Below are positions 1 through 56,159 of a DNA stretch of 64,000 bases, one piece after another; within the stretch, counting starts at the first letter, position 1; each line of letters opens with the position of its first letter. The position numbers and the translations under genes are program-made. The stretch is taken from positions 7,546 to 71,545 of the forward strand of contig DAINBB010000003.1 of assembly GCA_036733165.1 (NCBI GenBank), in the 5' to 3' direction. This stretch comes from Halobacteria archaeon. Lineage in GTDB: Archaea; Methanobacteriota_B; Thermococci; Methanofastidiosales; NM3. A model generated the notes under the pieces. That model saw only the letters and a list, made by a program, of their open reading frames with translations. It was not told where the DNA came from and did not search any database.

Positions 1-2
1 TG

Positions 3-1934
3 GGCGTCGAACTTGACGAGAACGGGTTCTTCAAGGAGCGCGACCTGATATCCTGCCCCATGGAGAGCTCAAGGCCGGGAGTGTTCCTTTCGGGCTGTTC
101 ACAGTCACCTAAGGATATCCCCGATTCTGTTGCCCAGGGTTCTGCGGCAGCTGCGATGGTCATGGACATATTGCCAAAGCCCGTCATCAAGCCTGTCGAG
201 CAGTCCCCTGAAAAGGCCATCAAGGCCGACGATGAACCAAAGATAGGCGTGTTCATCTGCATGTGCGGTAAGAACATAGCAGGTTACATGGATGTCAACA
301 AGCTCTCGGAGTACGCATTGTCATTGCCAAATGTCAAGCATGCGGAGACATTGATGTTCGCATGTTCACAGGATGCCCAGGGCAAGATCAAGAAGGCTAT
401 CAAGGACAACGACCTCAACCGTGTCGTCGTTGCGGCATGCACGCCAAGGACCCATGAGGCCCTCTTCCAGGACACGATAAGGGAAGTTGGAATCAACAAG
501 TTCCTCTTCGAGATGGCAAACATCAGGAATCAGTGCTCATGGGTGCATTCGAACGACCCAGAGGTCGCTCTTCAGAAGGCCAAGGAGCTTGTGAATATGT
601 CTGTCGCCAAGGCGCGTCTGCTGGAATCGTTGGACCAGGGTCAGATAGAGGTCGAGGAATCGGCCATGGTGATAGGCGGCGGTGTATCTGGCATGAGCGC
701 TGCACTGGCACTGGCGGAATCCGGTATCAAGGTCTATCTCGTTGAGAAAAAGGACAAGCTTGGAGGAATGTTGAACGAACTCACTACACTGTATCCTTCA
801 GACATCAAGGCCCAGGACGTAGTCGACAAGCTTGCAGACGAGATTTCCAAGAACAAGAACATCGATGTGATGATAAACACGGTCATTAAGAACATATCTG
901 GTTACATCGGCAACTTTGAGGTGGAGCTCAAGGAAGTTGATCCGATGTACAAGAACTTTGAGGAGCCATTCAAGGTCGGGACTGTAATCATCGCCACCGG
1001 AGCTGAGCTCATCGACCCCAAGGGAATATACGGGTATGGCGACAGCGACAAGATAATCACCCAGCAAGAACTGGAGAAGATGCTCAAGGAGGGCACGTTC
1101 CCCAAGGATGCCAAAGAGGTAATATTCATATCTTGCGCCGGAGCCAGGGAAGACGAGGGCAGGACCTACTGTTGCAGGGTAGGATGCGGCACGATGCTCA
1201 GGAACGCAAAGGCCCTCAAGGAACTTGACCCCGACCTGAACCTGTTCGTCCTCTTCAGGGACATGAGGTCCTTCGGTAAGAAAGAGGAGGAATACTATGT
1301 CGACGTTCAGGAAAAATACGGTGTCAAATTCCTTAGGTACGAGAAGGACAACAAGCCTCAGGTGACCGTCGAGAACGGAGATGTGAAGCTTCTTGTGCAC
1401 GACATGCTTCTGGGTGAGGACCTTGAGTTCAAGCCCGATATGGTCGTGCTCACAACACCGACAGAGGGACAGGCAGAGGACGTTGCAATGATGCTCAAGG
1501 TGCCAACGTCAAAGAACGGTGGGTTCTTCATGGAGGCCCATGCCAAGATAAGACCGCTAGACTTCGCCACTGATGGTGTCTATGTCTGCGGTAGTGCACA
1601 CTTCCCCAAGGGAGTTGCAGACTCGATCGCGCAGGCGGTCGGCGCGGCATCAAGGGCGGCGGTCCCGATTTTCGAGAGGATCGTCAAGGGAGAGGCCATC
1701 GTCAGCGATGTTGACCAGGAAAAATGCATCGGTTGCGGTATATGCGTCAGCATCTGTCCATACGGTGCAATGGCACTAACAGAGGGAAAGTCCCAGTCCA
1801 ACAAGGCTCTCTGCAAGGGGTGCGGCACATGCGCTTCGGCCTGCCCGATGTTCGCGATAAAGATGCCACACTTCACTGACGGCCAGATATTCGAACAGAT
1901 CAAGGCTGCGACCGAGAAGCCCGGAGGTGCATGA
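3..1934 (+). CDS. hdrA: HdrA-like flavoprotein, 5'-partial, apparent tandem fusion. The C-terminal part of an upstream HdrA-like FAD domain runs in frame into a complete HdrA (N-terminal Cys4 domain, FAD domain, C-terminal 2x[4Fe-4S] ferredoxin).
   Basis: Frame is open from window position 3 with no stop. Residues [26 protein letters not shown] match the HdrA FAD-domain C-terminal motif. This is followed by [19 protein letters not shown], which matches the N-terminus of the second HdrA at 3858 (MIGVFICFCGQNIGGYINV). Also present: [17 protein letters not shown] dinucleotide fold, two CxxCxxCxxxCP motifs near the C-terminus, and ATGA stop/start overlap with the next gene. Confidence 0.8.
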
Positions 1935-2686
1935 AAATGGCAGAAGAAAAGTTTGAACCTAAGATAGTGGCTTTCACATGCAACTGGTGTTCATATGCAG
2001 GTGCAGACCTGGCGGGTACATCGCGTATCCAATATGCGCCGAACATGCGCATCATCCGTGTCATGTGCTCTGGCAGGGTCGAACCTACCTTTATCCTGGA
2101 AGCCCTAAAAGAGGGTGCCGACGGCGTATGCGTTCTCGGCTGCCACTTCGGGGACTGCCACTACATAAGCGGGAACTATGAGGCCAACAGGAGAATGGAG
2201 CTTCTGAAGAAGCTCTTCCAGGACCTAGGCATCGATGAGAGAAGGATAATGATCGAATGGGTCTCTGCCTCTGAAGGGGAGAGATTCTCAGAGGTCGTCA
2301 ACAACTTCACGGAGCAGATAAGGGAACTTGGACCATTGCCCCCAGATTACAATGACAAGCTCGAGCTGATAAGGGGTGCCCTTGAGGGAGAGAGGCTCAG
2401 GATCGTCCTGGGTTCCACCAAGAGGGCGTTCGAAGGCGGCAGTGTAGAGGAGGAAAGGTACAATACGGCCCTCCACGACATCGCGAAGGACGAAATCGAC
2501 AGGGTCAAGATGTTCAAGGTCCTTGACAGGGAGGCTCGTCCGCTCACGGTTCCAGAGTTCTCTGAAATGACCGGAATTCCCAAGATGACGGTATGGAGAC
2601 ACGTACTCTCACTCACAAGGAAGAACCTCCTTGAGGCAATTGGTGAGGAGCATCAATACATGCTGTACCAAAGGAGGGGTGTGTAA
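1931..2686 (+). CDS. mvhD: MvhD-like (methyl-viologen-reducing hydrogenase delta subunit) domain protein with an approximately 110-aa C-terminal extension resembling a winged helix-turn-helix. The likely true start is ATG 1937 (RBS GGAGGTG 1924-1930).
   Basis: [19 protein letters not shown]...[36 protein letters not shown] is the canonical MvhD Cys pattern. The C-terminal [31 protein letters not shown] looks like an HTH recognition helix plus wing. Confidence 0.8.
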
Positions 2687-3861
2687 TGGTCATCAAGGAC
2701 GAGGAGATGGACTTCGAGTTCTCAAAGAAACTTGAGAAGGAGCTTGAGAACAGCTTTGCGAAGTGTTTCCAGTGCGGTACCTGCACAGCCAGGTGCCCCG
2801 GGGGCGTCATCTCCGATTACAGGACAAGAAAGTTCATGAGAATGGCCCAATTGGGTCTAAAGGACAAGATACTGGGCTCAGAAGACCTATGGAACTGCAC
2901 GACATGTTCCACCTGCAAGATCCTTTGCCCTTGGGAAGTAGACCCCCTATCCACGATCTTGAAGCTGAGAAGGGAAGCGGTCAAGGCCGGCAAGGAGAAC
3001 AAGAAGCATGATCCCCTAGTGAAGAGCCTTATCAACTATGACAACCCCTGGTTGCAACCAAGGGCGGCAAGGAAGAAATGGTACAAGGGTCTCGATGTCG
3101 TTGACCTCTCAAAGGAACCCGGCAAGGCGGATGTGCTCTATTACGTTGGATGCACGGCCACCTTCGACAAGAGGCTGTGGGGCATGTCAAGATCTGTGGT
3201 CAAGGTCCTCAACAAGGCAGGCATCACCGTAGGTGTGCTTGGCAAGGATGAGAAGTGCTGCGGAGGTACTGTCCGCGGTGTGGGTCATCCAGAGATCTTT
3301 GAAGAGCTGGCGAAACAGAATGTAGACGATCTCAACAACGCCGGCGTGGACACTATAATATTCTCATGTCCCGGATGTCTCAACACGATAAAGAACGCAT
3401 ACAAGGCCGAGAAGATAGGGGAAATAAAACCCAGGCTCATTCATGTCGTTGAATATGTGGACGAGCTTCTCAAGGAAGGCAAGCTGAAACTTGACAAGGA
3501 TGTCAAGAGGATAGTCACATACCATGACCCATGCCACCTTGGAAAGCACTGTGAGGTTTTCGATGCCCCGAGGGATATCCTCAAGGCCATCCCTGGACTT
3601 GACTTCAGGGAGATGAAGTTTGTAAGAAAGGATTCCTGGTGTTGCGGTGCCGGCGGAGGCGTGAAGACTGCATTCCCCGAGCGCGCGACAGAACTGGCGG
3701 TCAATCGTCTGGATCAGGCGGAGGAGACGGAAGCTGACACGATATGCAGCGCATGCTCGTTCTGCTATCAGAATCTTTTGGACGGTCTGGTGGCCAAGAA
3801 GGATTCCAAGATGGAGATGAAAGATATTATGGAACTTGTAGCGGAGGCGATTGAGGAATGA
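2686..3861 (+). CDS. hdrD: HdrD-like iron-sulfur/CCG-domain oxidoreductase (HdrC-like 2x[4Fe-4S] ferredoxin fused to an HdrB-like tandem CCG domain)
   Basis: CFQCGTCTARCP and CTTCSTCKILCP ferredoxin motifs. Two CCG domains (…GCTATFD…KCCGGTV… and …HDPCHLGKHC…WCCGAGGGV). TAATG overlap with mvhD, and RBS AAGGAGGGG upstream. Confidence 0.8.
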   Translation: MVIKDEEMDFEFSKKLEKELENSFAKCFQCGTCTARCPGGVISDYRTRKFMRMAQLGLKDKILGSEDLWNCTTCSTCKILCPWEVDPLSTILKLRREAVKAGKENKKHDPLVKSLINYDNPWLQPRAARKKWYKGLDVVDLSKEPGKADVLYYVGCTATFDKRLWGMSRSVVKVLNKAGITVGVLGKDEKCCGGTVRGVGHPEIFEELAKQNVDDLNNAGVDTIIFSCPGCLNTIKNAYKAEKIGEIKPRLIHVVEYVDELLKEGKLKLDKDVKRIVTYHDPCHLGKHCEVFDAPRDILKAIPGLDFREMKFVRKDSWCCGAGGGVKTAFPERATELAVNRLDQAEETEADTICSACSFCYQNLLDGLVAKKDSKMEMKDIMELVAEAIEE

Positions 3862-6140
3862 TTGGCGTATTCATATGTTTCTGCGGACAGAACATTGGTG
3901 GTTACATCAATGTCCCAGAGCTCACAGACTACTTCAATAACTGGAGAGATGACGTTGTTGCCTTCAACACAACATTCCTTTGCTCCGAGATCGGTCAGGA
4001 TTTGATCAAGGACAAGATAGAGGAATTGAACCTTGAGGCAGTGGTAATTGCTTCATGTTCTCCTAAGCACCATGGTGGGATCTTCCAGGCCTGCATTGGA
4101 CAGAAGATGAACCAGTACAGGTGGGAGTTTGCCAACATCAGGGAGCAGTGTGCTTGGGTGACACCCAACAAGAAGAATGCCACCGAGAAGGCCAAGGCCA
4201 TCATAGCCGGCGCCGTCGAGAAGGCCAGATTGTTGCAGGACATCGGTTCAACAAGGGTGCCTGTGACCAAGGACGTCCTTGTCATAGGCGGAGGTATCGC
4301 TGGTATGCACGGTTCCTTGGAACTCACTGACAAGGGATTCCATGTGCACATGGTGGAAAAACAGGAGACCATCGGCGGACACATGGTACAGTTCGACAGG
4401 GTATTTCCGACCGATGACTGTGCAATGTGTACGAGCTCGCCTATTCTTGCCGACGTAGCAATGGACCCACTGATAGACATATACTCCCTTTCCGAGGTCA
4501 TAGAGGTCCGAGGAAGGCCTGGAGAGTATATTGTGAAGATCAGAAGAAATCCAAGATATGTCGATGAGTCTAAGTGTACGGCCTGCGGTGACTGTACCAC
4601 GCACTGCCCAGTCGAGGCCTGGAGCGAATGGCGCTATGGAATGGCGGTCAGGTCTGCGATAGACAAGCCGCTTGCACAGGCTGTGCCGCTCAAGAACAGG
4701 ATATACAATGACACATGTATCAGGTGCGGGACCTGTGAGAACGTCTGTAAGGCAGATGCGGTTCTATATAATCAGGAACCCGAGGAGTTCGAGATAACCG
4801 TCGGTGCGATAATGATATCGACAGGCTACGACATTCTTGACCTTTCAAACACAGAATATCATCAGGAGCATCCCAATGTCATATCCCATCTGCAACTTGA
4901 GGCGCTGAAGGTGCCATCTGGTCCAACGGCCGGAGAGATTCTGAGGCCATCGGACGGTAAGATGCCGAAGCACCTCGTGTTCGTACTATGTGCGGGGTCC
5001 AGGGACAGGAGACACAACGTATACTGTTCCAAGGTGTGCTGCATGTACACCACCAAGAACGCAAGGCTGATCAAGGCGGAGAATCCCAACATGAAGATCA
5101 CCATTTGCTATATCGACGTCCGTGCTGCAGGAAGGGGATATGAGGAATACTTTGACAAGGCCCGTGAGATGGGCATAAACTATGTCAGAGGCAATGTGTC
5201 CGAGATAGTTCCCAACGGGGAGGACCTCATAGTGAGGCTCGAGGACACCTTCACGAGCGAGCCATTGGAGCTTGACGCTGACCTTGTTGTCCTGTCAAGC
5301 GGAATGGTGCCTTCGCAAGGTACCAGGGACATGTCCGAAGTGATACATGTGGTATCTGGCGCAGACAAGTTCCTTGCGCCGGTGCACGTGAAGATCGCGC
5401 CTGTCGACACTGCCAACACCGGTGTCTACATCGCGGGTACCGTTGAGGCACCCAAACCTATCCAGGAGTCAATCACGGACGCGGGTCTCGTGGCATCCAG
5501 GATAGCCACGTTCCTTAAGGATCCCGAGATAGAGATCGATCTGAAGACCTCGAAGATAAACGCCGACGTATGTATAAAGTGCGGCACATGCGCGGACAAC
5601 TGTGTCTACGATGCCATTGACACCACCGGTGAGGACTTCAAGGTGCTTGATGTGTCATGCCAGGCATGCGGTAAGTGCTCGGTGATATGTCCGACAGGGG
5701 CCATTGACCTTCAGTTGTACACCGAGGACCAGCTCATCAAACAGGTCGATGGTATACTGGAGCAGGACCCGGACTCGATAATAGGATACTGCTGTTACCA
5801 ATGCGGTTACAACGCCGCTGACCTTGCAGGTACTGCAAAGGCTTTCATAAACCCCAAGGTCAAGGTCGTATTGGTGCCCTGTTCAGGACGTGTGACCATA
5901 CAGCACATGCTCTATCCGTTCTTCAAGGGCGCGAAGGGCGTCTTCCTCGCAGCATGCCTCGAGGGCCAGTGCCATTACATAGACGGCAATCTGCAGGCCA
6001 AGGAGAAGGTCAAGCTGGCGAAGAAATCACTGGACCTGATGGGTGTTGGTGGACGTAAGCTGAATCTGTTCAACATGTCCTCGGCAGAAGGTCCTAAGTT
6101 TGTCGCTGCTGCTAAAAGGATGGTGGAAATATGTCAGTAG
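3858..6140 (+). CDS. hdrA: HdrA-MvhD fusion protein (HdrA2-type): N-terminal Cys4 domain, FAD domain with an inserted ferredoxin domain, C-terminal ferredoxin, then a fused MvhD domain
   Basis: MIGVFICFCGQNIGGY N-terminal domain; VLVIGGGIAGMHGSLEL FAD fold; four CxxCxxCxxxC(P) motifs; C-terminal YCCYQCGYNAADLAG…VPCSGRV…ACLEGQCHY is MvhD-like. ATGA overlap with the upstream gene. Confidence 0.85.
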   Translation: MIGVFICFCGQNIGGYINVPELTDYFNNWRDDVVAFNTTFLCSEIGQDLIKDKIEELNLEAVVIASCSPKHHGGIFQACIGQKMNQYRWEFANIREQCAWVTPNKKNATEKAKAIIAGAVEKARLLQDIGSTRVPVTKDVLVIGGGIAGMHGSLELTDKGFHVHMVEKQETIGGHMVQFDRVFPTDDCAMCTSSPILADVAMDPLIDIYSLSEVIEVRGRPGEYIVKIRRNPRYVDESKCTACGDCTTHCPVEAWSEWRYGMAVRSAIDKPLAQAVPLKNRIYNDTCIRCGTCENVCKADAVLYNQEPEEFEITVGAIMISTGYDILDLSNTEYHQEHPNVISHLQLEALKVPSGPTAGEILRPSDGKMPKHLVFVLCAGSRDRRHNVYCSKVCCMYTTKNARLIKAENPNMKITICYIDVRAAGRGYEEYFDKAREMGINYVRGNVSEIVPNGEDLIVRLEDTFTSEPLELDADLVVLSSGMVPSQGTRDMSEVIHVVSGADKFLAPVHVKIAPVDTANTGVYIAGTVEAPKPIQESITDAGLVASRIATFLKDPEIEIDLKTSKINADVCIKCGTCADNCVYDAIDTTGEDFKVLDVSCQACGKCSVICPTGAIDLQLYTEDQLIKQVDGILEQDPDSIIGYCCYQCGYNAADLAGTAKAFINPKVKVVLVPCSGRVTIQHMLYPFFKGAKGVFLAACLEGQCHYIDGNLQAKEKVKLAKKSLDLMGVGGRKLNLFNMSSAEGPKFVAAAKRMVEICQ

Positions 6141-8083
6141 ATGAGAAGAAGGAAGAACCTATCCAGGTATCCGGCGGATGCGAGATAGGTGGCGTCTTGG
6201 AATGTGCCACCTGCAAGAGATGTTCGCTTGTCTGTCCGACAGAGCTTAACCTGGAAAAGGTCGTAAGGATCTCAAGATACCTCAGGGACCCGAAAGGATC
6301 CCACAGGAACATCTTCAAGATCACGTCGAAGCTCGCCGGAATGGCGGAGACACAGAGCTGGCTCAAGAACGGCGAGACAGGCACTGACATAGCATACTTC
6401 CCAGGTTGTTCAGCCCTCTTTGACATACTGTTGCAGAGGGACACCAACTACGCTGGTTCCGCCGAGGCGGCCGTGCTCGTATTGAACAAGCTAGGTTTCA
6501 AACCAGAAGTCATCTATGGCTGTTGCGGACATGACCTATATTACTCGGGTGCGCTCGATGAGTTCGAGACCGTCAAGAAAGAGATGATGAAGAAGGTCGA
6601 GGGCAAGAAGATAGTGGTCGGTTGTGCCGAATGCTACCATATGCTCAAGAACGTATATGGCATAGAGGATACGATACCTTTCGCAGAGTTCGTCCTTCAG
6701 CACAATCCGAAGTTCGAAAAGACCGACCTCAAGACCACCTACCACGACCCATGCAGGCTTGGCAGGTACAACAGCGTCTACGATGCTCCAAGGGAACTTC
6801 TGAAGAAGGCATCCGACTTCAGGGAGATGGAGAACATAAGGGAAGAGGCCATATGTTGTTCCGTTTCCGCCTGGCTCAACTGCAACAAGACGGCAAGGGA
6901 GGTCAGATTCAACAGGATCAAGGAAGCGAAGGCGACTGGCGCGGATTACCTTGTGACCGCATGCAACAAGTGTTCCATACATCTCGACTGTGTCCATTAC
7001 GAACTCAACAAGGAAGAGGTCGAGGAGCTCAGCGATATCAAGATAATGGGGCTTGAGGAGGTCGTCGGCTACGCCATGGGTGTCTATGACCCGTTCAAGG
7101 AGGAGAAGTCGTACGAGGTGCCGGAGATCACAGGCAAGTTCCTTGAACCGATCGAGATCGAGAAGGACCTTGAGAGATATATCGACGAGGAACTTGTCGA
7201 AGAGGCGTTCAAGTGCACGTCCTGCAAGAACTGCGCCATTGTATGCCCCGTGCATTACGATACCCCCGGAATGATGATGGAGGTATTCAGGCCGGAGCTT
7301 GTAAAGCGCGGCCACGGTCCTGAGAAACACGCGAAGATAGAGGGCGTCCTAAGGAAGACCGGAAATGCTTTCGGTGCGGAGGAAGGCGTAAAGACCAAAC
7401 TAAATCCAAAGGCAAAGTATGTATACTTCCCGGGATGCGTTGCTCAGTTCAGGCGCGATGACGTTTTCCAGGCAACGACCAAGATCTTGGACCTTCTCAA
7501 GATCGACTATGAGATACCAGAAGGGCTCGTATGTTGCGGTTCCGTCCTGAAGAGGACAGGTCACCCGATGGACTTCCTGATCGAGCAGAACATGAAGCTG
7601 CTCAAGGGCAAGCCCATAATCACATCCTGTTCAGGTTGTTATGCAACCTTGAAGAAGGACTATGAGGGCCTTGAGGTGTATCACATAACAGATATCATCA
7701 AGGAGAATCTGGACAAGCTTCCGCTGAAGGAGGTCAAGAAGAAGGTCATGTACCACGATCCTTGCCACCTTGGAAGGAAGTTCAGTTACTACGACATCCC
7801 AAGGGAGATAATCGAGGCCATTCCGGGCATTGAGCTCGTACCCTTCGACAAGGAGAAGGAGAACGCGCAATGTTGTGGTGCAGGTGGCGGGGTGAAGTCT
7901 GCGAAGCCAGACATCGCAAACAAACTTGCACAGAAGAAGATGGACGAGGCCAAGGAAAAGAAGGCCGACATGGTCGTATCATCATGTCCCTTCTGTGAGC
8001 TCAATCTTCAGGACAACAACAACGACATACCGGTGGTCGACATCCTGAATCTCCTTATGGAATCACTGGGGGTGGAAGCATGA
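6131..8083 (+). CDS. Internally duplicated HdrD-like protein: two consecutive [ferredoxin + CCG + CCG] units in one polypeptide
   Basis: Unit 1: CATCKRCSLVCP; YFPGC…CCGHD; HDPCRLG…ICCSVSAW. Unit 2: FKCTSCKNCAIVCP; YFPGC…VCCGS; HDPCHLGRKF…QCCGAGGGV. Confidence 0.75.
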   Translation: MSVDEKKEEPIQVSGGCEIGGVLECATCKRCSLVCPTELNLEKVVRISRYLRDPKGSHRNIFKITSKLAGMAETQSWLKNGETGTDIAYFPGCSALFDILLQRDTNYAGSAEAAVLVLNKLGFKPEVIYGCCGHDLYYSGALDEFETVKKEMMKKVEGKKIVVGCAECYHMLKNVYGIEDTIPFAEFVLQHNPKFEKTDLKTTYHDPCRLGRYNSVYDAPRELLKKASDFREMENIREEAICCSVSAWLNCNKTAREVRFNRIKEAKATGADYLVTACNKCSIHLDCVHYELNKEEVEELSDIKIMGLEEVVGYAMGVYDPFKEEKSYEVPEITGKFLEPIEIEKDLERYIDEELVEEAFKCTSCKNCAIVCPVHYDTPGMMMEVFRPELVKRGHGPEKHAKIEGVLRKTGNAFGAEEGVKTKLNPKAKYVYFPGCVAQFRRDDVFQATTKILDLLKIDYEIPEGLVCCGSVLKRTGHPMDFLIEQNMKLLKGKPIITSCSGCYATLKKDYEGLEVYHITDIIKENLDKLPLKEVKKKVMYHDPCHLGRKFSYYDIPREIIEAIPGIELVPFDKEKENAQCCGAGGGVKSAKPDIANKLAQKKMDEAKEKKADMVVSSCPFCELNLQDNNNDIPVVDILNLLMESLGVEA

Positions 8084-8706
8084 GCGAAGCCGAGACAAAG
8101 AAGGTGGATCAGATGGAAGAGGACCCGTACGAACTGGAGAACTTCCACAAGATCCTTGAGGACAGCAAGATCCTCAACTGCGTCCAATGCGGGAAATGCA
8201 CCGGAGGCTGCCCTGCAGGAAGGGACTCCAGGATAAGGATAAGGGAGCTTATCCATCTTGCCCACGAGGGTCATGACATCAAGGACTGCAAGGAGCTATG
8301 GCTTTGCACAACATGCTACAACTGCCAGGAAAGGTGTCCCAAGGGCGTTGACACGACAGAGGCCATCATTTCCCTGAGAAACAGGGCCATAAGAAAGGGC
8401 GACCACAACTTCCCGGAGATCCACGTCACCGCGATCACGTCCTTGCGTGATCAGGCCGATGGATTCCCGCTCAGCCCCGATGTTGAGTCTATCAGGTCTG
8501 TCATCGGACTTCCGAAACATCCGCACGACCTGGCCCATGACCCAGAGGGTCTCAAGAAGTTCCAGGAACTCATGGACGACCTTGACATCGTGGGACTAAT
8601 CGAGAAGCAATGTGGCGACAGCAAGCCATGGAAGTACGTGGACATCGATTACAAGCCACCAGTTGCCAGAGGCGCCAAGAAGAAGGAGGCTGAGTCAGAT
8701 GAGTGA
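8080..8706 (+). CDS. hdrC: HdrC-like subunit (2x[4Fe-4S] ferredoxin)
   Basis: CVQCGKCTGGCPAG and CTTCYNCQERCPKGVD motifs. ATGA overlap with the upstream gene. Confidence 0.8.
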   Translation: MSEAETKKVDQMEEDPYELENFHKILEDSKILNCVQCGKCTGGCPAGRDSRIRIRELIHLAHEGHDIKDCKELWLCTTCYNCQERCPKGVDTTEAIISLRNRAIRKGDHNFPEIHVTAITSLRDQADGFPLSPDVESIRSVIGLPKHPHDLAHDPEGLKKFQELMDDLDIVGLIEKQCGDSKPWKYVDIDYKPPVARGAKKKEAESDE

Positions 8707-9604
8707 AGAGGAAACAAGGAAACAGGAGACTTACTCTCTTTTCCCTGGATGCATCGCCAAGAACATGTATCCCTCCATAGAGAAGTCTACATATACCATC
8801 TTTGAGAAGATAGGCGTAAAGCTTCTCAATCACAGATACTCCTGCTGTCCAGCACCAGGTGTCTTCAGGGGATATGACAGGAAGACCCACATGACACTAG
8901 GTGTCAGGAACATAGTCATGGCGGCACAGGACAACGTGGATGTCATGACAATATGCAACGGATGCTACGGTTCCCTTTGGGAAGCGAACGAGATGTTCAG
9001 GAAGAGCAAGGAGAACCAGGAATTTGTGAACGGGAAACTTGCCAAGATAGGGCTCTCATACGATGGGAAGACCGAGGTGCTCCACTTCGTGGATGTTCTT
9101 CACAAGCACTTGGAGGATGTGGAGAATGCAAAGGAGATCGATCTTGGTCTTAAGGTGGCGGTCCATTACGGATGCCATTATCTGAGGCCGTCTGACAAGC
9201 ATCCCGACATCAATCCCGAAAGCCCACACGTCATCGAGGATGTCGTTGAGGCATTGGGCTGCGAGAGCGTGGACTTCAAGAACAAGCTTTCCTGCTGCGG
9301 TGCCGGCGGAGGTGTCTGGAGCGGAGCAGAGGAACTTGGGCTCAGGGTCCTTGATGCGAAGCTCAAGAACGTTCAAGAGTCAGGCGCAGACTGCATAGTC
9401 AACATATGCCCGTTCTGCCACATGCACCTTGACCAGAGCCAGGGCAAGCTTGAGGAGAGGTACAAGATACCTATCCTGCACCTTAGCGAGTTGACCGGTC
9501 TGGCATTTGGCATAAGACCAAAACACCTTGCGATGCACACGCACCTGATATCCACGCGTGACATCGAGAAGAAGATCAAGAGCGCAAAGAAGGAAAAGGC
9601 ATAG
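8699..9604 (+). CDS. hdrB: HdrB-like subunit (two CCG domains)
   Basis: ATG at 8699 overlaps the hdrC stop (8704-8706). FPGCIAKN…SCCPAPG and HYGCHYLRP…SCCGAGGGV motifs. The track ORF began further upstream with out-of-context residues. Confidence 0.8.
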   Translation: MSEEETRKQETYSLFPGCIAKNMYPSIEKSTYTIFEKIGVKLLNHRYSCCPAPGVFRGYDRKTHMTLGVRNIVMAAQDNVDVMTICNGCYGSLWEANEMFRKSKENQEFVNGKLAKIGLSYDGKTEVLHFVDVLHKHLEDVENAKEIDLGLKVAVHYGCHYLRPSDKHPDINPESPHVIEDVVEALGCESVDFKNKLSCCGAGGGVWSGAEELGLRVLDAKLKNVQESGADCIVNICPFCHMHLDQSQGKLEERYKIPILHLSELTGLAFGIRPKHLAMHTHLISTRDIEKKIKSAKKEKA

Positions 9605-9650
9605 ACCTTTCCTTTATTTTTTTTCTATTTGTAAGACAAATTTTTTATTA
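9605..9650 (+). terminator. Oligo-T rich tract directly after hdrB (archaeal-type terminator candidate)
   Basis: cctttattttttttctatttgtaagacaaattttttatta; runs of 8 and 6 T. Confidence 0.4.
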
Positions 9651-9676
9651 CGAAAATCATACTACCTTCATACAAT

Positions 9677-11443
9677 ATGGTGGTCATGATGCTCAATTAT
9701 TCTGGTGGTCTTAATTTTCATAGAATGGGCCTCTTCATTGGAATTATAGTCTTCTTTATCATGTTGATGCTGCCATCGTTTGGTTCCATGGATGACAGCA
9801 GCTATGATGTAATCTATGAAAAACTGCCGACAGATCTGAAGGAAAAAATATCCAGCGAGTTCGGTGATGTTAATGATGACAACTTTGATGATTTCTTGGA
9901 ATACTCCAAGTCCGTGGGTGTCTCGATATCAAAGACATCGGCGTCCTTCATCTCGGACCAGACCTACGATTCCCTCTCTTACAAATCGAACTATGCGGCG
10001 CCCATAAGCCTCTATGAGCTGATAAAGGGACAGAGCGAGGCACAGATGAAGGTCTTGGCGATCGCCCTTCTGATGGCGATATGGTGGATCACGGAGGCGA
10101 TACCCGTTTCTGTGACAGCCCTTCTTCCTGCCATGTTGCTTCCGTTCCTGGGCGTATGCCATTACAACGGCAACACATACCCTGGATACTTCTCTGCCTT
10201 TGAGCAATATGCCAATTACCTGATATTCCTTTTCCTTGGGGGATTCATAATCGCGGCGTCTATGAGGAAATGGGGTCTGGACAAGAGGATATCCCTCAAC
10301 ATACTTCGTGTATTTGGAACAAAACCTTCCAGGGTAGTGCTGGGATTCATGGTGGCCACAGCATTCTTGTCAATGTGGATATCCAACACCGCCACCGCGG
10401 CAATGATGATGCCTGTGGCGCTGGCGGTCCTGACGCAGGCCGGCCTAAAACCCGGCAAGAGCTCCTTTGGGTTCTGCCTCATGCTATCCATAGCCTATGC
10501 GGCGTCCATAGGCGGCATTGGCACGTTGATAGGCACGCCTCCCAACGGCATTGCGGTGGGATTCATTGCACAGTTCCAGGGAAAGGTGATAACATTCGCC
10601 GATTGGCTGAAGATAGGCCTGCCCATTGTAATAATATTTCTTCCGATAGCGTGGAGATACATAATATGGCGCTTTCCGCCCGAAGTTGAGGAGATATCCG
10701 GTGGCAAGGGAGTTATCAGGGAAAACCTGCGCAAACTTGGCAACCTCTCGACCGGTGAGAAGACGACCCTTTTCGTTTTCGTCCTCACTGCCGTCATGTG
10801 GGCCACAAGGTCATCCATAGTAATAGGCGACTTCACATTGCTGAAGGGATGGTCAACATGGTTTGGGGGATACTTTTCGTTCGTTCATGACAGCACGGTG
10901 TCCATCCTGGCGGTCATACTCCTGTTCCTATTGCCTGTCGGTGAGGGGAAGTTCACAATGGACTGGAGTACTGCAAGCAGATATGTTCCATGGGGCACAT
11001 TGATACTGTTCGGCGGGGGTCTCACACTTGGCAAGTCCATAGCTAACACCGGGCTTTCCTCCTGGTTCGCTTCGCATCTCACATCGTTTGGATCAGTGAA
11101 TATCGTCATCGTGCTGCTTGCCATAGCCATTATGAGCGTGCTTCTATCAGAGGTCACCTCGAACACTGCGACCACCTCCATGCTGATGCCTGTCATGTTC
11201 TCGCTTGGGGTGGCACTGAACAGGGATCCCGTGACATTCATGATAACATCCGCCGTGGCAACATCCATGGTGTTTTCCTTGCCTGTCGCGACTCCGCCCA
11301 ATGCAATAGTCTTTGGAACTGGTTATGTGGGCATCGACAGGATGGCCAAGAACGGCATACTTCTTGACTTTATTGGCATAATAATCTGGACGATTGTTGT
11401 GTATCTGGTGATAGGGACGCTATTCGGCATAATCGCTGTCTGA
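9677..11443 (+). CDS. DASS/SLC13-family anion (di/tricarboxylate or sulfate) symporter with an N-terminal approximately 130-aa extension
   Basis: Polytopic membrane protein with internal repeat. Motifs of the ArsB/NhaD/DASS superfamily: SNTATAAMMMPV and SNTATTSMLMPV re-entrant loops. Confidence 0.75.
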   Translation: MVVMMLNYSGGLNFHRMGLFIGIIVFFIMLMLPSFGSMDDSSYDVIYEKLPTDLKEKISSEFGDVNDDNFDDFLEYSKSVGVSISKTSASFISDQTYDSLSYKSNYAAPISLYELIKGQSEAQMKVLAIALLMAIWWITEAIPVSVTALLPAMLLPFLGVCHYNGNTYPGYFSAFEQYANYLIFLFLGGFIIAASMRKWGLDKRISLNILRVFGTKPSRVVLGFMVATAFLSMWISNTATAAMMMPVALAVLTQAGLKPGKSSFGFCLMLSIAYAASIGGIGTLIGTPPNGIAVGFIAQFQGKVITFADWLKIGLPIVIIFLPIAWRYIIWRFPPEVEEISGGKGVIRENLRKLGNLSTGEKTTLFVFVLTAVMWATRSSIVIGDFTLLKGWSTWFGGYFSFVHDSTVSILAVILLFLLPVGEGKFTMDWSTASRYVPWGTLILFGGGLTLGKSIANTGLSSWFASHLTSFGSVNIVIVLLAIAIMSVLLSEVTSNTATTSMLMPVMFSLGVALNRDPVTFMITSAVATSMVFSLPVATPPNAIVFGTGYVGIDRMAKNGILLDFIGIIIWTIVVYLVIGTLFGIIAV

Positions 11444-33251: not shown

Positions 33252-34442
33252 ATGAACAAAATAGAGTTGAAGAACGGTATATACTGGGTCGGGGCTATAG
33301 ATTGGAATCTCCGCGATTTCCACGGATACAAAACGCCGAACGGGTCTACATATAATGCATATCTCGTAGTTGGCGAGAAGATTGCATTGATAGACACGGT
33401 GAAGAGACCTTTTCTGAACGACCTTGTTGAAAACATCAGGAACATAGTGGAACCTGAGAAGATCGATTATCTTATAGTAAACCATGTCGAGATGGACCAT
33501 TCAGGTTCATTCCCGGAGATCGTGAAACTGCTCAAGAACGCCCGCATTGTCGCCACCAAGGAGGGCAAGGAGGAACTTTTGAAGCACCACGGCAAGGATT
33601 ATGACATAACGGTCGTGGAGGACGGTGACACGATATCCCTGGGCAACAAGACCCTCAGATTCATAAAGACTCCGATGCTGCATTGGCCCGACTCGATGAT
33701 GACATATGTCCAGGAGGACAAGGTGATATTTACTTCGGACGCCTTTGGCCAACATTACGCCTCCACAGAAAGGTTCGACGACGAGCTTGACGAGAAGACG
33801 CTCTATGACGCGGCTGGGGAATACTATTCCAACATACTTTGGCTCTACAGCCCGCTTGTATCACGCCTGATCGAGAAGGTGATGGACATGGGCATCAAGC
33901 TGGAGATGGTGGCACCCGACCATGGCATAATATGGAGAAACGACCCGCATAAACCCATAAACTGGTATTGCGAGTGGGCAAATGGAAAGTCTGTGAACAA
34001 GGTGTTGCTGGTATATGAAACGATGTGGGGCTCCACGGAAAAGATGGCCAGGGCGATAGCCAAGGGAATAACAGACCAGGGAATGAACGTCAAGCTGATG
34101 AAGCTTAAGGAGACCGAATACAGCTACGTGATCAAGGAACTGCTCGGGTGCAGAGGCATACTTGTGGGCACACCTACCCTCAACAACAACATGTTCCCCT
34201 CCATGGGCGGTTTTCTGACATATCTTAAAGGGCTCAGGCCAAAGGGAAGGATAGGAGCGACCTTTGGTTCCTATGGCTGGGGCGGCGGTGCGTGCAAGGC
34301 CGCGGAGGAGATGCTGGACGAGGCGGGTGTCAGGATAGCGTTCCCGCCACTGGAGCTTAAATGGGTCCCTACGGCCGAAGAGCTCGAGGACTGTTACACC
34401 TTTGGAAAGGAGTTTGCATCTAAAGCTATGGAGAAGATATAG
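33252..34442 (+). CDS. fprA: Flavodiiron protein FprA (metallo-beta-lactamase-like diiron domain + flavodoxin domain)
   Basis: HVEMDHSGS (HxExDH) motif plus a C-terminal flavodoxin-like domain; 396 aa. Confidence 0.85.
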   Translation: MNKIELKNGIYWVGAIDWNLRDFHGYKTPNGSTYNAYLVVGEKIALIDTVKRPFLNDLVENIRNIVEPEKIDYLIVNHVEMDHSGSFPEIVKLLKNARIVATKEGKEELLKHHGKDYDITVVEDGDTISLGNKTLRFIKTPMLHWPDSMMTYVQEDKVIFTSDAFGQHYASTERFDDELDEKTLYDAAGEYYSNILWLYSPLVSRLIEKVMDMGIKLEMVAPDHGIIWRNDPHKPINWYCEWANGKSVNKVLLVYETMWGSTEKMARAIAKGITDQGMNVKLMKLKETEYSYVIKELLGCRGILVGTPTLNNNMFPSMGGFLTYLKGLRPKGRIGATFGSYGWGGGACKAAEEMLDEAGVRIAFPPLELKWVPTAEELEDCYTFGKEFASKAMEKI

Positions 34443-35342
34443 TTGGAGAAACAGGATCTTAAGAATGAGGCATGGAAGAAGGTCGGCACAAAGTTTGCAC
34501 ATATAACAAGTGTCCATCCATGCTACAATGAGGATGCGCATCACAAAAACGCCAGGATACACCTCCCAGTGGCCCCGAAATGCAACATCCAATGCAGATT
34601 CTGCAGCAGGGGTCTGGACAAGTGTGCCAATCGGCCTGGCGCCTATTCCCACCTATTGAGCCCCGAGGGGGCTGTGGAACGGGTCAGGGAGGCGAAGAAG
34701 AAGTATAGGACGCTCCGGGTGGTCGGAATAGCGGGCCCGGGCGAACCATTGTTCAACCTCGAGACGTTCGAGACATTGTCAATGGTTGACAAGGCGTTCC
34801 CGAAACTATACAAGTGCATAGCCACCAACGGCCTCCTATTGCCAAAGAAAGTGGACATCCTCAAGAGCAACAACGTCGGCAGCGTCACCGTGACGGTGAA
34901 CGGCCTGGACCCGGATGTCGTTTCACAGATAGTGTCATGGGTGGTGTACGAGGGCAAGCTGTACAAGGACGAAAGGGGCGCCGAGAAGCTGATAGAGAAT
35001 CAGCTTGAAGGGATCGAAAAGGCCGTTAATGCGGGAATGGTGGTGAAGGTCAACACGGTCCTCATACCTTCCATCAACATGGACGAGGTAGAGATGATAG
35101 CAAAGACCGCATCCGAGCTTGGCGCATGGATAATGAACATCATCCCACTGATACCGCTCAACGATTTCTCAGACATGGAACCGCCGGGTTGCGATGACCT
35201 CAAGAGGGCAAGGCAGATGGCCGAGAAGCATATAAATCAGTTCAGGCTCTGCAAACAGTGCAGGGCGGATTCCTGCGGCGTTCCGGGAAAAGAGGACCAT
35301 TCAATACCAAGGACCTGCGCATCAGAATATTTCCATGGGTGA
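34443..35342 (+). CDS. NifB-like radical SAM protein (minimal NifB, no NifX domain), apparent TTG start abutting the fprA stop
   Basis: HPCYNEDAHHKNARIHLPVAPKCNIQCRFCSRGLDKCANRPG is nearly the NifB signature (HPCY…AHH…ARMH…VAP.[21 protein letters not shown]). There is no in-frame ATG before this motif. Confidence 0.7.
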   Translation: MEKQDLKNEAWKKVGTKFAHITSVHPCYNEDAHHKNARIHLPVAPKCNIQCRFCSRGLDKCANRPGAYSHLLSPEGAVERVREAKKKYRTLRVVGIAGPGEPLFNLETFETLSMVDKAFPKLYKCIATNGLLLPKKVDILKSNNVGSVTVTVNGLDPDVVSQIVSWVVYEGKLYKDERGAEKLIENQLEGIEKAVNAGMVVKVNTVLIPSINMDEVEMIAKTASELGAWIMNIIPLIPLNDFSDMEPPGCDDLKRARQMAEKHINQFRLCKQCRADSCGVPGKEDHSIPRTCASEYFHG

Positions 35343-35348: not shown

Positions 35349-37685
35349 ATGGAAGGGAGGTTCCATCTCGAGGGAATACACTGTGCAGGGTGTGTGAAGA
35401 AGATAGAGGATGCACTAAGGTCCCTTGATGGCGTGAAAGATGTGGCCATCAACCTTGCATCCAATTCTGGAACAGTCGATTACGATGAATCCGTTGTAGA
35501 CGGCAGGACGATATCGGCGAAGATATCCTCTCTGGGTTACAAGGTGAAGCTCGAGAGCGTCGTGGTGGACATAGTGGGCATGCACTGCGCCAACTGCGCG
35601 CTCGGTCTTGAGAAGGCCCTGGGCGGCACCGACGGCGTATCCAGTGCAAATGTGAACTTCAACACTGGCAGGGCGTTTGTCACCTACGACCCCTTGGCGT
35701 TCGATGCGGGGCTTATCAACGATATAGTTGAGAAGAGGGGGTACAAGGTCGCCTCAAGGGAGAAGACCGACGAGAAGGAAAGCAATCCGTATCTGAGGAC
35801 GTTCATCTTTACCTTGCTGCTCGCAGTTCCTGTCATATTCATCACCCACTTCACCGAGTTTGACAACAGGCCCATCGTGCTTTTCCTTTTGACAACGCCG
35901 ATACAGTTTATCTCGGGCTTTACATTCTACAGAAGCGCCCTCTACTCTCTCAAGGGTGGTAGCGCCAACATGGATGTCCTCGTGATGCTTGGGACATCTG
36001 CGGCATACTTCTATTCGGTGGGGACGACGTTCTTCTTCGAAGGCCCACTGTTCTTTGAGACCACCGCAATGCTCCTTTCGTTCATACTGCTGGGAAAACT
36101 GCTTGAGACATACGCCAAGGGTAGAACCTCCCAGGCCCTAAAGAAGCTGATGGCACTGCAGGTCAAGTTCGCACTGGTCGAACGCGACGGAAGACAGATA
36201 GAGGTGCCCATAGACTTCGTGAAGGAGGGAGACATAACGATAGTGAGGCCAGGGGAACGCGTGCCCGTGGACGGCATCGTCACTGAAGGGTATTCGACGG
36301 TGGACGAGTCCATGATAACGGGCGAGTCGATACCCAGGGAGAAGGTCGGGGGCGATGATGTCATAGGGGGCACCATAAACGGCAATGGCCTTCTGAAGGT
36401 AAGGGCCACCAAGGTGGGGGCGGATGCCATGCTATCCCAGATAATATCGTTTGTCGAGAAGACCCAGGGCACCAAGCCGCCCATACAAAGGTTCGCCGAC
36501 AGGGTGTCATCCTATTTCGTCCCGGCGATCATCATCATCGGCCTGACCACCTTCGCATTGTGGTATCTCGTCCTTGACGAGACATTCGTCTTCTCGCTGA
36601 CCAGGATGATAGCCGTGCTTGTCGTGGCGTGCCCATGCGCGCTGGGCCTTGCGACACCCACGGCCATTGCGGTCGGCACGGGTGTGGGGGCGAACAACGG
36701 CATCCTGATAAAGAGCGGCGAGGCGCTTGAGAAGGTCCAGGACGTCGACACGGTAGTGTTCGACAAGACGGGGACCCTGACCAGGGGAACGCCGGAGGTC
36801 ACTGACTACACATCCATGGATGTGCTCAGGTACGCTGCCAGCATTGAAAAGGGGTCTACGCATCCCCTTGCCGAGGCCATCGCCTCAAAGGCGGAGCAAG
36901 AGGGCATAGAACTGGCCGGCGTTGAAAAGCTGAACACGATCCCTGGAAGGGGCATCGAGGCCGAGATGGGCGGCAAGAGGTACCTTTTAGGCAATTCATC
37001 ATTATTGAAGGACAATCATATCCCGTTCAGGGAGGAGGGGGCCATACTTCTTGAAAACAGGGGAAACACCGTTGTGCACCTGGCAAGGGAGGGCGAGTAT
37101 CTGGGACATGTGGCTTTGGCAGACACGGTAAAGGACAATGCGCCCCGGGCGGTTGCAGACCTTCGCAGGAGGGGCATATCCGTATGGATGATCACGGGGG
37201 ACAATGAGAACACGGCCAGGGCCATATCACATCAGCTTGGCATAGACAACTTCATGTCCAACATACTTCCAAAGGACAAGGCGCTCAAGATAAAGGAGCT
37301 TCAGGACGGCGGAAAGAAGGTCGCGATGGTCGGCGACGGCATCAACGACGCGCCCGCCCTGATACAGGCGGACGCGGGGATAGCCATCGGCTCCGGTTCC
37401 GAGATAGCCATAGAATCCGGAGAGATAATACTGGTCGGTGACGACATAGGCGATGTCAACGTCTCCTTGTCCCTGTCCAAGAGCATATATTCGAAGATAA
37501 TGCAGAACATGTTCTGGGCGCTGTTCTACAATTCCCTGATGATCCCCATCGCCGCAGGGCTACTGTCGGGTCATGGCATAAACATGAGGCCCGAGCTGGC
37601 GGCGCTCGCCATGTCAATGTCCTCCGTGTCTGTGGTTTCCAACTCCCTTTTGTTAAGAAGATTTAAAATGAAGGATTCAGATTAG
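35349..37685 (+). CDS. copA: Cu+-translocating P1B-type ATPase CopA with two N-terminal HMA domains
   Basis: GIHCAGC and GMHCANC metal-binding sites; CPC, DKTGTLT, HP and [10 protein letters not shown] motifs. Confidence 0.9.
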
Positions 37686-39667: not shown

Positions 39668-40180
39668 TTATCTTTTGCGTTCGATGCGCATGCCCTCGTA
39701 GAACGGCATGAAGTACAGGGTGGCAACGCCTATGATCAGAAGTATCTGCATGTTCGTCTGCCCCTCACCCATGAAGTATATGTCATAGAGGCCGAACCGT
39801 GACAACAGTCCGAACGTGATGATTATCGCTGCCAGATAGAGCATTGGGGGAACGTATTTCCTGTTCCTTCTCAACCTGAGCCATGGTAGCCCCATACCCC
39901 TTGCCTTGTTGAGAGTGTGTTCGAGTGCGACCAGCATTGGCAGCAATATGGCAATGGTGAACGACAGCGTGGACGTATCGAACGCGTTCTTGAAATGAAA
40001 GAGATGGGAGAGGATCATTGCGTCCGAGAACGCTATCAGGAGCAGACCTCTTTCGTTCCACCTGTATGTTAGGGCGATGGACAGGATGGCCAGCAATGAA
40101 AGCATGACAAGATACTGCCACGCCACTCCGGAGTAAATGCCTATTGCGAGGGAGTAGAATGAGAACAGAATTGCCATCAT
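39668..40180 (-). CDS. Polytopic membrane protein, terminal gene of the MoxR operon
   Basis: 170 aa, about 5 TM helices; 4-nt overlap with the DUF58 gene. Confidence 0.45.
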   Translation of the reverse strand: MMAILFSFYSLAIGIYSGVAWQYLVMLSLLAILSIALTYRWNERGLLLIAFSDAMILSHLFHFKNAFDTSTLSFTIAILLPMLVALEHTLNKARGMGLPWLRLRRNRKYVPPMLYLAAIIITFGLLSRFGLYDIYFMGEGQTNMQILLIIGVATLYFMPFYEGMRIERKR

Positions 40181-55910: not shown

Positions 55911-56159
55911 TTTTGCTTTTTTCTTCAATTGAATTTTAGTATTTACAATGTAGTAATTGCATTATTTCCTTATTTTTTTTATTTTACAGTAAAACCACTG
56001 CAAAAAGTATTTAAAGGAAAAGTTACATTAAATGCCTATATAGCTATACGGAGTGTTGGAGCGTGAACATGTTCGAAAAAGTAATCCAATTAGTTAATGG
56101 TATATTTACACACGATTCTGATACAGATTTTGTCAATGATAAGTATGGTTGGAGGTTTA

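Follow-up and report, generated by a model that had tools for sequence, protein, structure and literature searches.

The open reading frame at the start of the window (the entire 64,000-nucleotide stretch of DNA analysed) is part of a genuine gene fusion encoding a type II (HdrA3/HdrA4) HdrA, in which two HdrA-like modules are joined in a single polypeptide, and the gene stands first in an hdr/mvhD operon of seven genes. HdrA is the central flavoprotein of flavin-based electron bifurcation, both in methanogens and in many other anaerobes. The fused protein probably acts as a covalently linked pseudo-heterodimer, which replaces the HdrA homodimer and has a single bifurcation path at the flavin of its N-terminal module (N-module).

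Architecture and class of the fused protein

Translation of positions 3-1931 of the window (plus strand, as for all features given here) gave 643 codons with zero stops, and the frame continues uninterrupted to a TGA stop at 1932-1934, which shares ATGA with the ATG of the next gene. In the source contig (L085), which showed 0 mismatches to the window across 8686 nt, a complete hdrA-type gene with an RBS was found at positions 2942-6004; its intact ORF of 1020 amino acids runs through the junction between the modules. The window part represents the C-terminal 643 of these 1020 residues, with 377 residues of the protein lying upstream of the window. FAD motifs are present at residues 13-18 (GAGITG) and 602-607 (GGGVSG) of the 1020-aa ORF, and two Pfam Pyr_redox_2 matches were obtained in an orthologue (P0001, 87% identical); the window contains the end of the first TrxR domain and the whole of the second.

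Domain boundaries were set by alignment to HdrA (5ODC_A). The tail of the TrxR/FAD domain of the N-module lies at nt 3-158 (window residues 1-52; residues 378-429 of the full protein) and aligns to approximately residues 508-560 of 5ODC_A. A sequence-only reading of the window had recognised this remnant as the end of an HdrA-like FAD domain, which is correct, but had put its length at about 35 codons instead of about 52. It is followed by a Pro/Lys/Glu-rich inter-module linker of 26 residues (nt 159-236; residues 53-78). The second module (C-module) begins at window residue 79 with an N-terminal FeS (MvhD-like) domain (nt 237-617; residues 79-205), which aligns to 5ODC_A residues 2-130 and carries cysteines at window residues 86, 88, 121, 146 and 178 (463, 465, 498, 523 and 555 of the full protein). 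The TrxR-like FAD domain of the C-module (nt 618-1688; Pfam Pyr_redox_2 at residues 221-546) contains GGGVSG at nt 675-692, a retained equivalent of E356 (nt 1065-1082 region), a cluster cysteine pattern of C..CCxxGC (nt 1128-1190) and Arg as the equivalent of K409 (nt 1194-1211 region). The chain ends in a C-terminal 2x[4Fe-4S] ferredoxin domain (nt 1689-1931; Pfam Fer4/Fer4_7/Fer4_21 at residues 553-630; aligning to 5ODC_A 572-648), with Cys motifs at nt 1725-1760 and nt 1812-1847.

The HdrA fold was matched by both modules, by sequence as well as by Foldseek. P0001 aligned by sequence to 5ODC_A with an E-value of 5.6e-213, while Foldseek against solved HdrA gave an E-value of 2.7e-52 and TM-scores of 0.74-0.80 (normalised to target length); the AF2 model of P0001 was only moderate (mean pLDDT 74, pTM 0.75). 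No PDB chain matching both modules was found by sequence or by Foldseek.

The two modules complement rather than duplicate each other, as judged from alignment-based residue censuses of 115 close homologues and 91 diverse type II ORFs. Cys57 and Cys60 of the full protein, in the N-module, correspond to Cys194 and Cys197 (5ODC_A numbering), and these cysteines were found in the N-modules of 114/115 close homologues and 88/91 diverse ORFs. All 8 cysteines of the inserted ferredoxin domain were present in the N-modules of both censuses, which carried no N-domain and no C-terminal ferredoxin. The absence of a C-terminal ferredoxin domain from the upstream module, suggested by the earlier reading, was borne out by the 5ODC_A alignment, by the homologue census and by the full gene in the source contig. 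K409 was found in the N-modules of all members of both sets, and E356 in 114/115 and 91/91 (E227 and K280 in the protein studied here). The N-domain cysteines of the C-module were kept in 115/115 close homologues and, among the diverse ORFs, at four positions in 91/91 and at the fifth in 75/91; the C-terminal ferredoxin had 8/8 cysteines conserved in 115/115 homologues. Neither a Cys at 194/197 nor an inserted ferredoxin domain was found in any C-module of the two censuses (115 and 91), and the residues aligned to 194/197 here are I645 and Q648. The E/K pair is relaxed in the C-modules of the 91 diverse ORFs (E or D in 84/91; K in 63/91; R in 18/91), and in the window protein the Glu is kept (E735) and Lys is replaced by Arg (R777). 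The C-module had been taken for a complete HdrA; with neither the inserted ferredoxin domain (5ODC 237-315) nor Cys194/Cys197, and with a feature set that is the reverse of that of the N-module, it is not complete.

This is the architecture of type II HdrA (A3/A4; HdrA3/HdrA4; PMC9012536, PMC12054007), in which, as here, two TrxR/FAD domains are held in one chain of ~1000 amino acids, the N-part starts directly at GxGxxG and the gene usually lies in a cluster with mvhD and hdrBC. The N-part of the protein is A6-like (no N-terminal FeS, no C-terminal ferredoxin, Cys197 present) and the C-part is A12-like (N-terminal FeS, no Cys197, C-terminal ferredoxin); PMC12054007 derives type II from an A6-like HdrA fused to an A12-like one, and states that no type II HdrA has been characterised biochemically or structurally. 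E356 and K409 are reported to be kept in both TrxR domains of 75% of type II HdrA. Fused HdrA also appears in a survey of archaeal fusions (PMC11237513). The module order given in the prose of PMC9012536 is the reverse of that found here; in the searched portion of the PMC12054007 supplement, as here, the TrxR domain with Cys197 comes first in the type II sequences, and the N-terminus of the window protein had no match in that portion.

Neither module is a canonical HdrA (type I, class A1), which has the full domain set with a single TrxR in a chain of ~650 amino acids. The equivalog cutoffs of NCBIfam NF041778 and NF041891 were not reached by P0001 (791.7 vs 1400 and 754.4 vs 1300, respectively), and the window fragment scored 385 and 374. 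The C-terminal MvhD fusion of HdrA2 (type Ia) is absent, the ORF ending at 1934 and MvhD being encoded by the separate next gene; the NF040770 (HdrA2) score of 1066.6 was under the cutoff of 1100. Both modules share their fold and cofactor motifs with the canonical HdrA of MvhAGD-HdrABC (PDB 5ODC, 7BKB, 8RVU, 9SFI). That enzyme, however, is built symmetrically from two identical 650-aa subunits of five domains each, so that every domain occurs twice, whereas a single chain here carries one N-domain, one inserted ferredoxin domain, one C-terminal ferredoxin domain and two FAD domains.

A scan of species-representative genomes gave at least 589 relatives with the fused architecture. Among the matches listed it was common in non-methanogens (Chloroflexaceae, Desulfobacterales, Syntrophobacterales, Asgard archaea and Thermoplasmata), and no Methanofastidiosales genome was found among these listed matches. 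The fused two-module HdrA, which the sequence-only reading had overstated as atypical, is thus ordinary, because the type occurs widely among anaerobic archaea and bacteria and has been described before.

The hdr/mvhD operon and its host

The type II hdrA is directly followed by mvhD (1931-2686), which encodes an FlpD domain at residues 12-134 (Pfam PF02662, 3.3e-57) and a C-terminal extension of ~115 amino acids, and which has GGAGGTG just upstream; an MvhD-like ORF lies directly after type II hdrA in 66/91 of the diverse set. The next gene (2686-3861) encodes an HdrC-HdrB fusion (HdrD-like) of 391 amino acids with a 4Fe-4S dicluster and two CCG domains (Pfam CCG 3.3e-34, Fer4_17/Fer4_9), and an HdrD-like gene occupies the equal position in the orthologous loci L001 and L085. 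A second hdrA (3858-6140) encodes a type Ia HdrA-MvhD fusion of 760 amino acids (Pfam FlpD at residues 641-757, Fer4, Pyr_redox_2). This fusion protein contains every domain of canonical HdrA, the inserted ferredoxin among them, as well as the DCAMC motif (Cys194/197), and it scored 814.9 bits against NCBIfam HdrA2, below the cutoff of 1100. The remaining genes, assigned by Pfam and by synteny with L001, encode a four-CCG protein of 650 amino acids (6131-8083), an HdrC-like protein (8080-8706) and an HdrB-like protein (listed ORF 8612-9604), the last with a probable start near 8699 by analogy with a 301-aa orthologue.

Genes for an electron-donor module (hydrogenase, Fdh or FrhB) are absent from the operon. 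Linkage to metF/metV, which would mark an Hdr-type methylene-THF reductase, was also absent, no MetF/MetV domain being found in the eight genes of window positions 1-11443, in L001 or in L085. The type II cluster of ANME/Methanosarcina termed 'consistent' includes genes for FdhB and a molybdopterin oxidoreductase, neither of which is in the operon here, where the HdrD-like fusion, the type Ia HdrA-MvhD and the four-CCG protein are found instead.

The HdrA proteins of the Hdr-type MTHFR of Sporomusa ovata (942 aa) and Moorella thermoacetica (1487 aa) (PMC9430772) also have an extra N-terminal TrxR-like FAD domain, and their C-part is like that described here (MvhD-like N-domain, TrxR without inserted ferredoxin, C-terminal ferredoxin); their partners are HdrBC and MvhD (PMC9430772). 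The N-part of the S. ovata protein, however, has fewer clusters, giving 5 [4Fe-4S] in total (PMC9430772) compared to seven cluster sites predicted here from Cys motifs, a GltD/NAD(P)H insertion is present in the Moorella protein, and both are linked to metFV, unlike the gene studied here.

The closest named homologues were those of Methanofastidiosia, at 72-74% identity, and of 'Candidatus Methan...', at 86%, and the names attached to these homologues indicate that the host is probably a Methanofastidiosia-type archaeon. No methanogenesis marker was found in the 64-kb window. Scanning of the window for Rfam families and tRNAs gave one tRNA-Glu and nothing bearing on the HdrA fusion.

Proposed electron path and alternative readings

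In the canonical homodimer, each subunit contributes its Cys197 to complete its partner's N-domain cluster, and Sec/Cys197 bridges the FAD and the N-domain cluster (PMC13518236). Fused HdrA has been described as its own heterodimer partner on the basis of Cys197/N-domain complementarity (PMC9012536). In the pseudo-heterodimer that is favoured here, the N-module would supply a TrxR/FAD domain with the invariant E356/K409, the trans-ligand Cys197 (Cys60), the putative TrxR-domain [4Fe-4S] and the sole inserted ferredoxin domain, while the C-module would supply the sole N-terminal FeS domain, a second FAD domain with its own putative [4Fe-4S] site and the sole C-terminal ferredoxin domain. Electrons would be bifurcated at the N-module flavin, the predicted bifurcating flavin, with the participation of the adjacent MvhD and HdrB/C-like partners. 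[quoted passage not shown]

The C-module of the window protein differs from that of other type II HdrA in that the fourth cluster ligand lies at position 400 (CCxxGC) and not at 403, and in having Arg at K409. A ligand at 400 was found in 19/91 diverse type II ORFs and in all 115 close homologues, in a group that spans Methanofastidiosia, Theionarchaea, some Thermoplasmata and Heimdallarchaeota, and K409 is Arg in the C-module of the nearest relatives of the window protein. It is possible, though rather unlikely, that this clade forms a type II subfamily of its own, with the fourth ligand moved from 403 to 400. In that case its second flavin may have turned into a non-bifurcating relay or site of donor entry, and the seven-gene operon may build an asymmetric super-complex coupling two different HdrA types, a kind of complex that has not been described.

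Alternatively, both flavins may be catalytic, as PMC12054007 proposes in suggesting that both could bifurcate, with two bifurcation/confurcation events per polypeptide and each module feeding its own HdrBC-like unit. Each module does keep GxGxxG, the four-Cys TrxR-domain cluster site and a Glu at E356, K409 is K or R in 81/91 C-modules (the change here being a conservative Lys-to-Arg), and several HdrB/C-like units are encoded in the operon. However, one N-domain/Cys197 pair and one inserted ferredoxin domain per protein leave only one complete low-potential exit, and the E/K pair is invariant in the N-module only; in the S. ovata homologue E/K is likewise conserved only in the N-terminal TrxR (PMC9430772). 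Two events per polypeptide were therefore considered unlikely, and a single path at the N-module flavin is preferred.

It was also considered whether the complex serves a redox couple other than CoM-S-S-CoB, such as another disulfide or a partner enzyme like MetFV. The frequency of the architecture in non-methanogenic bacteria and archaea, the lack of a methanogenesis marker in the 64-kb window and the use of such an HdrA by Hdr-type MTHFR (PMC9430772) all fit this reading. It was nevertheless judged improbable, as the closest named relatives are Methanofastidiosia, for which H2-dependent methyl-reducing methanogenesis relying on Mvh:Hdr bifurcation has been proposed (PMC6019823), and the operon contains no metFV and encodes HdrB CCG domains in abundance.

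Authenticity and significance of the fusion

The sequence-only reading had described a frame, open from nt 3 and truncated at the edge of the window, in which a TrxR-like or HdrA-like module is fused to an HdrA-like one, and on this it was right: the modules lie in one open frame (3-1934), with no in-frame stop and no Shine-Dalgarno-plus-ATG in the linker. A phmmer search returned E = 0 for more than 100 proteins of 980-1110 amino acids that covered 98-100% of the query. The orthologue P0001 was found in the same operon in at least 4 independent assemblies, and both modules were in one frame of at least 900 amino acids at 78/80 loci from diverse archaeal and bacterial genomes. Codon differences from L001 were mostly synonymous in both modules (157 synonymous and 21 non-synonymous in one, 216 and 67 in the other); the linker showed no indel, with 8 synonymous and 8 non-synonymous differences. 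Motif-to-motif spacing across the linker was 35 residues in 47/62 homologues. The fused gene is confirmed as real and is not an assembly artefact.

Unfused counterparts were identified at nine loci (L027, L028, L033, L036, L043, L066, L068, L082 and L084), where an N-like gene of ~445 amino acids is followed by a C-like gene of ~568 amino acids and then mvhD, the same order as in the fusion. The complementary feature sets of these pairs match those of the modules of the fused protein, and a stop, RBS and ATG are found at the position of the linker. Recoding at the single in-frame stop between the modules was considered for two Bathyarchaeota loci (L027 and L036) and rejected, a plain TAA/TAG being followed by an RBS and ATG. 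The unfused tandem pairs described previously (HdrA5/6 and HdrA12/13; PMC9012536) are likewise two polypeptides, in contrast to the one chain with a 26-residue linker found here.

That the one gene gives two proteins, by internal initiation or by proteolysis of the linker, with the C-module freed as an HdrA12-like subunit, is very improbable. In-frame Met codons occur at residues 52 and 54 (nt 156-167), and the linker is variable in sequence and predicted to be unstructured; however, no Shine-Dalgarno-like sequence precedes these Met codons, whereas true split genes have one, and the length of the linker is conserved, which suggests a role as a tether. Least probable of all, to the point of being negligible, is an artefact in which adjacent HdrA6-like and HdrA12-like genes were joined by a lost stop or frameshift near nt 100-240, the error that the earlier reading had named as its refutation: a two-gene state is biologically possible, because authentic split pairs exist in other lineages with a stop and restart exactly at the linker position, but the source contig has the fused frame, as do four assemblies of the 87%-identical orthologue, the >100 homologues and the 78/80 loci, distant lineages included, and the indel-free linker has no RBS/ATG at the junction.

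The locus adds nothing qualitatively new, and is a clean and complete example of the fusion with a rich hdr operon. For annotation, it follows that a long hdrA of type II is a real gene and is not to be split. As fused and split asymmetric HdrA pairs show, a built-in heterodimer in which each accessory iron-sulfur domain occurs only once can take the place of the textbook symmetric homodimer, and such asymmetric pairs are a natural system for testing which cofactors a single bifurcation event requires.

Integrity and layout of the hdrA gene

The reading frame cut by the 5' edge of the window was found by translation to encode 643 residues without a stop (window 3-1931, + strand), and it ends in a TGA (1932-1934) that is interlocked with the start codon of the following gene in the tetranucleotide ATGA, with the sequence GGAGGTG located shortly 5' of this overlap. 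Domain limits were set by alignment to the solved canonical HdrA chain 5ODC_A, whose residue numbering is used for key positions. The frame (+ strand throughout) opens with the end of a TrxR FAD domain (aa 1-52, nt 3-158; 5ODC_A ~508-560), followed by a Pro/Lys/Glu-rich linker with no 5ODC_A equivalent (aa 53-78, nt 159-236), an N-terminal FeS domain bearing FICMCG, FACSQD, AACTPR and QCSWVH (aa 79-205, nt 237-617; 5ODC_A 2-130), a TrxR/FAD domain with GGGVSG (aa 206-562, nt 618-1688; 5ODC_A TrxR core) and a C-terminal 2x[4Fe-4S] ferredoxin domain (aa 563-643, nt 1689-1931; 5ODC_A 572-648). The sequence-only reading had correctly observed an in-frame fusion of TrxR-like and HdrA-like parts, and its interpretation was largely correct; the upstream remnant it described is present but spans ~52 codons in this alignment, not 35.

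The complete gene was located on L085, a 98.7-kb JGI metagenome contig reached through an exact match to the neighbouring MvhD protein. L085 agrees with the window at all 8686 overlapping bases, which makes it the source of the window, and carries an intact hdrA ORF of 1020 codons (2942-6004). The full-length protein begins MSKEKETSVLVIGAGITG, its start is immediately preceded by the ribosome-binding site GGTAGGTG, and window residue i corresponds to full-protein residue i+377. L085 belongs to the same assembly as the window and independent support was taken from other sequences. Four separate assemblies, each from a different sample, contain an orthologue of 1021 aa (P0001, 87% identical) in the same operon. 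Homologues that span 98-100% of the query number more than 100 and measure 980-1110 aa. A scan of species-representative genomes gave at least 589 relatives, and at 78 of the best 80 of these loci a single frame of 900 codons or more covers both modules. Codon differences to the orthologous locus L001 are predominantly synonymous in the two modules (157 synonymous against 21 non-synonymous in one, 216 against 67 in the other), with 8 of each kind and no indel in the linker, the spacing of which is 35 residues in 47/62 homologues. The fusion is real: the intact L085 ORF, independent assemblies, one-frame homologues, diverse loci and codon differences exclude the frameshift or lost stop near the junction that had been raised as a possible artefact.

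Complementary modules and a proposed electron path

Key positions were tallied in 115 close homologues and 91 diverse bacterial and archaeal type II ORFs (fused HdrA with two TrxR/FAD modules in one chain) following alignment to 5ODC_A. The N-module starts directly at GxGxxG, carries Cys194/Cys197 (114/115 and 88/91), an inserted ferredoxin domain with all eight Cys, four TrxR-domain cluster Cys in a CSxxCC pattern and invariant E356 and K409, and lacks both the N-terminal FeS domain and, as was noted earlier for the upstream part, the C-terminal ferredoxin domain. The C-module starts with the N-terminal FeS domain and its Cys, never has Cys at 194/197, lacks the inserted ferredoxin domain, has four cluster Cys of which the fourth varies in position, and ends with the eight-Cys C-terminal ferredoxin domain; position 356 is E or D in 84/91, and position 409 is K in 63/91 and R in 18/91, with Arg in the window. 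It is consequently not the complete second HdrA it had been taken for. In the whole protein the FAD domain occurs twice but every accessory iron-sulfur domain exactly once, a single Cys197 matching the single N-domain, and as judged from these positions the modules are complementary halves, with no duplication.

The fourth C-module ligand was found at position 403 in 72/91 diverse ORFs, while the remaining 19/91 and 115/115 close homologues, window included (CCRVGC, nt 1167-1190), have Cys at 400 and Gly at 403. The two states were mutually exclusive (type II ORFs from loci L005-L084), a swap which would define a type II subfamily.

Canonical HdrABC contains an HdrA homodimer in which the N-domain [4Fe-4S] cluster of one subunit is completed by Cys197 of its partner (Sec197 in some species), a residue that also bridges this cluster to the flavin; the low-potential electron exits via the inserted ferredoxin domain, and the high-potential electron reaches HdrC and HdrB by way of the TrxR-domain cluster (PMC9012536, PMC13518236). 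When this path is mapped onto the one-copy domain set, only one low-potential route appears possible: from the N-module FAD, electrons would pass to the cluster of the C-module N-domain and Cys60, then to the N-module inserted ferredoxin domain and on to ferredoxin. Input would probably come from MvhD via the single C-terminal ferredoxin domain, and the high-potential electron would probably go to one of the HdrB/C-like partners. We favour a single bifurcating flavin, in the N-module, with the second acting as a relay or structural cofactor, because E356/K409 are invariant in the N-module only, as in the HdrA homologue of Sporomusa ovata (PMC9430772). Bifurcation at both flavins (PMC12054007) would fit the retention of GxGxxG, Glu, Lys/Arg and the four-Cys site by the C-module, but is unlikely given the single low-potential route and the same invariance pattern. 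An AlphaFold2 model of P0001 had a mean pLDDT of 74 and a pTM of 0.75, and both modules match solved HdrA structures.

Operon and host context

Type II hdrA is the first of seven operon genes conserved in orthologous loci, followed by mvhD (251 aa with a C-terminal extension; 1931-2686), an HdrC-HdrB fusion/HdrD-like protein (391 aa), a type Ia HdrA-MvhD fusion (760 aa), a four-CCG-domain protein (650 aa; 6131-8083), hdrC (8080-8706) and hdrB (listed ORF 8612-9604). A DASS-family transporter gene comes next, and no hydrogenase, Fdh, FrhB or MetFV genes were found in the operon context. Among the diverse loci, an MvhD-like ORF lies directly 3' of type II hdrA in 66/91.

The operon MvhD comprises an FlpD domain (residues 12-134) and a ~115-aa extension with only weak, sub-threshold HTH_IclR/HTH_24 matches. 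Long MvhD (255-281 aa) recurs in loci of Asgard, Bathyarchaeia and bacteria (e.g. L010, L023, L028, L050, L065-L069, L079, L084), where its gene directly follows hdrA of the type II or split form; the usual ~150-aa form occurs too. The 650-aa protein is a doubled HdrB: its CCG (HdrB-type) domains number four, and a ferredoxin-like Cys motif lies midway. It is kept as 668 aa in L001, and Methanoperedens-type loci (L021, L024, L042, L049, L080) encode ~350-aa relatives upstream of their type II hdrA. As listed, the hdrB ORF starts with GTG at 8612, encodes 330 aa and shares ~95 nt with hdrC; since its L001 orthologue is annotated with 301 aa and shares 8 nt, a true start near 8699 is probable.

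A Pus10 with an archaeal THUMP domain is encoded in the window, indicating an archaeal host. The nearest named homologues are from Methanofastidiosia (72-74% identity) and 'Candidatus Methan...' (86%), and no methanogenesis marker was found within the 64-kb window. Elsewhere, a 2144-aa ORF (56097-62531) with many CarboxypepD_reg/SdrD_B/SpaA-type Ig-like repeats is presumably surface or adhesin-like; four minus-strand genes, for DUF58 (40177-41592), a MoxR-type AAA_3 ATPase (41598-43013), DUF4350 (43023-44120) and DUF4129 (44117-45775), resemble a MoxR-associated module; and at 33252-35342 a radical SAM protein adjoins a flavodiiron-like protein of 396 aa (ODP/metallo-beta-lactamase plus flavodoxin), followed by a heavy-metal P-type ATPase that carries two HMA domains (35349-37685).

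Split counterparts and the type II class

Two type II hdrA-mvhD units were found in tandem in several genomes (Asgard, Bathyarchaeia, Desulfobacterales, Clostridia; loci L023, L031, L044, L050, L053, L065, L067, L068, L070, L075 and L079), some of which additionally carry a split hdrA pair at that locus; together these show extensive paralogy of the hdrA-mvhD module.

Canonical HdrA identity was rejected: neither module has the full domain set, the protein scores below the NCBIfam equivalog cutoffs, and no PDB chain with both modules was found among the sequence and structure matches. The architecture had been considered atypical, but the fused HdrA of the window belongs to a known, widespread class with at least 589 relatives. 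Such fusions were described as 'HdrA3/HdrA4', in which one chain provides both partners of a heterodimer (PMC9012536), and as 'Type II HdrA', a fusion of A6-like and A12-like HdrA (176 sequences, no biochemistry; PMC12054007), whose supplementary sequences likewise start with a Cys197-bearing TrxR domain. The HdrA of the Hdr-type methylene-THF reductase of S. ovata and Moorella thermoacetica has the same architecture (PMC9430772), and a survey of archaeal protein fusions also covers it (PMC11237513). What remains new is the ligand-shift/Arg subfamily and the unusually rich hdr operon.

At nine fetched loci an N-like gene (~430-458 aa) is directly followed by a C-like gene (~565-583 aa) and then mvhD, these split pairs sharing gene order and complementary features with the fusion. 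At two Bathyarchaeota loci (L027 7300-7345; L036 1215-1240) the N-like and C-like hdrA lie in the same frame with a single stop between them, TAA or TAG followed by a ribosome-binding site and ATG exactly at the position of the window's linker. They are genuine split genes, one mutation short of the fused state. Unlike these, the window linker has no such ribosome-binding site and ATG, in agreement with the earlier remark that the junction lacks an obvious internal start signal. A fused protein with split counterparts points to type II HdrA as a heterodimer joined into one chain.
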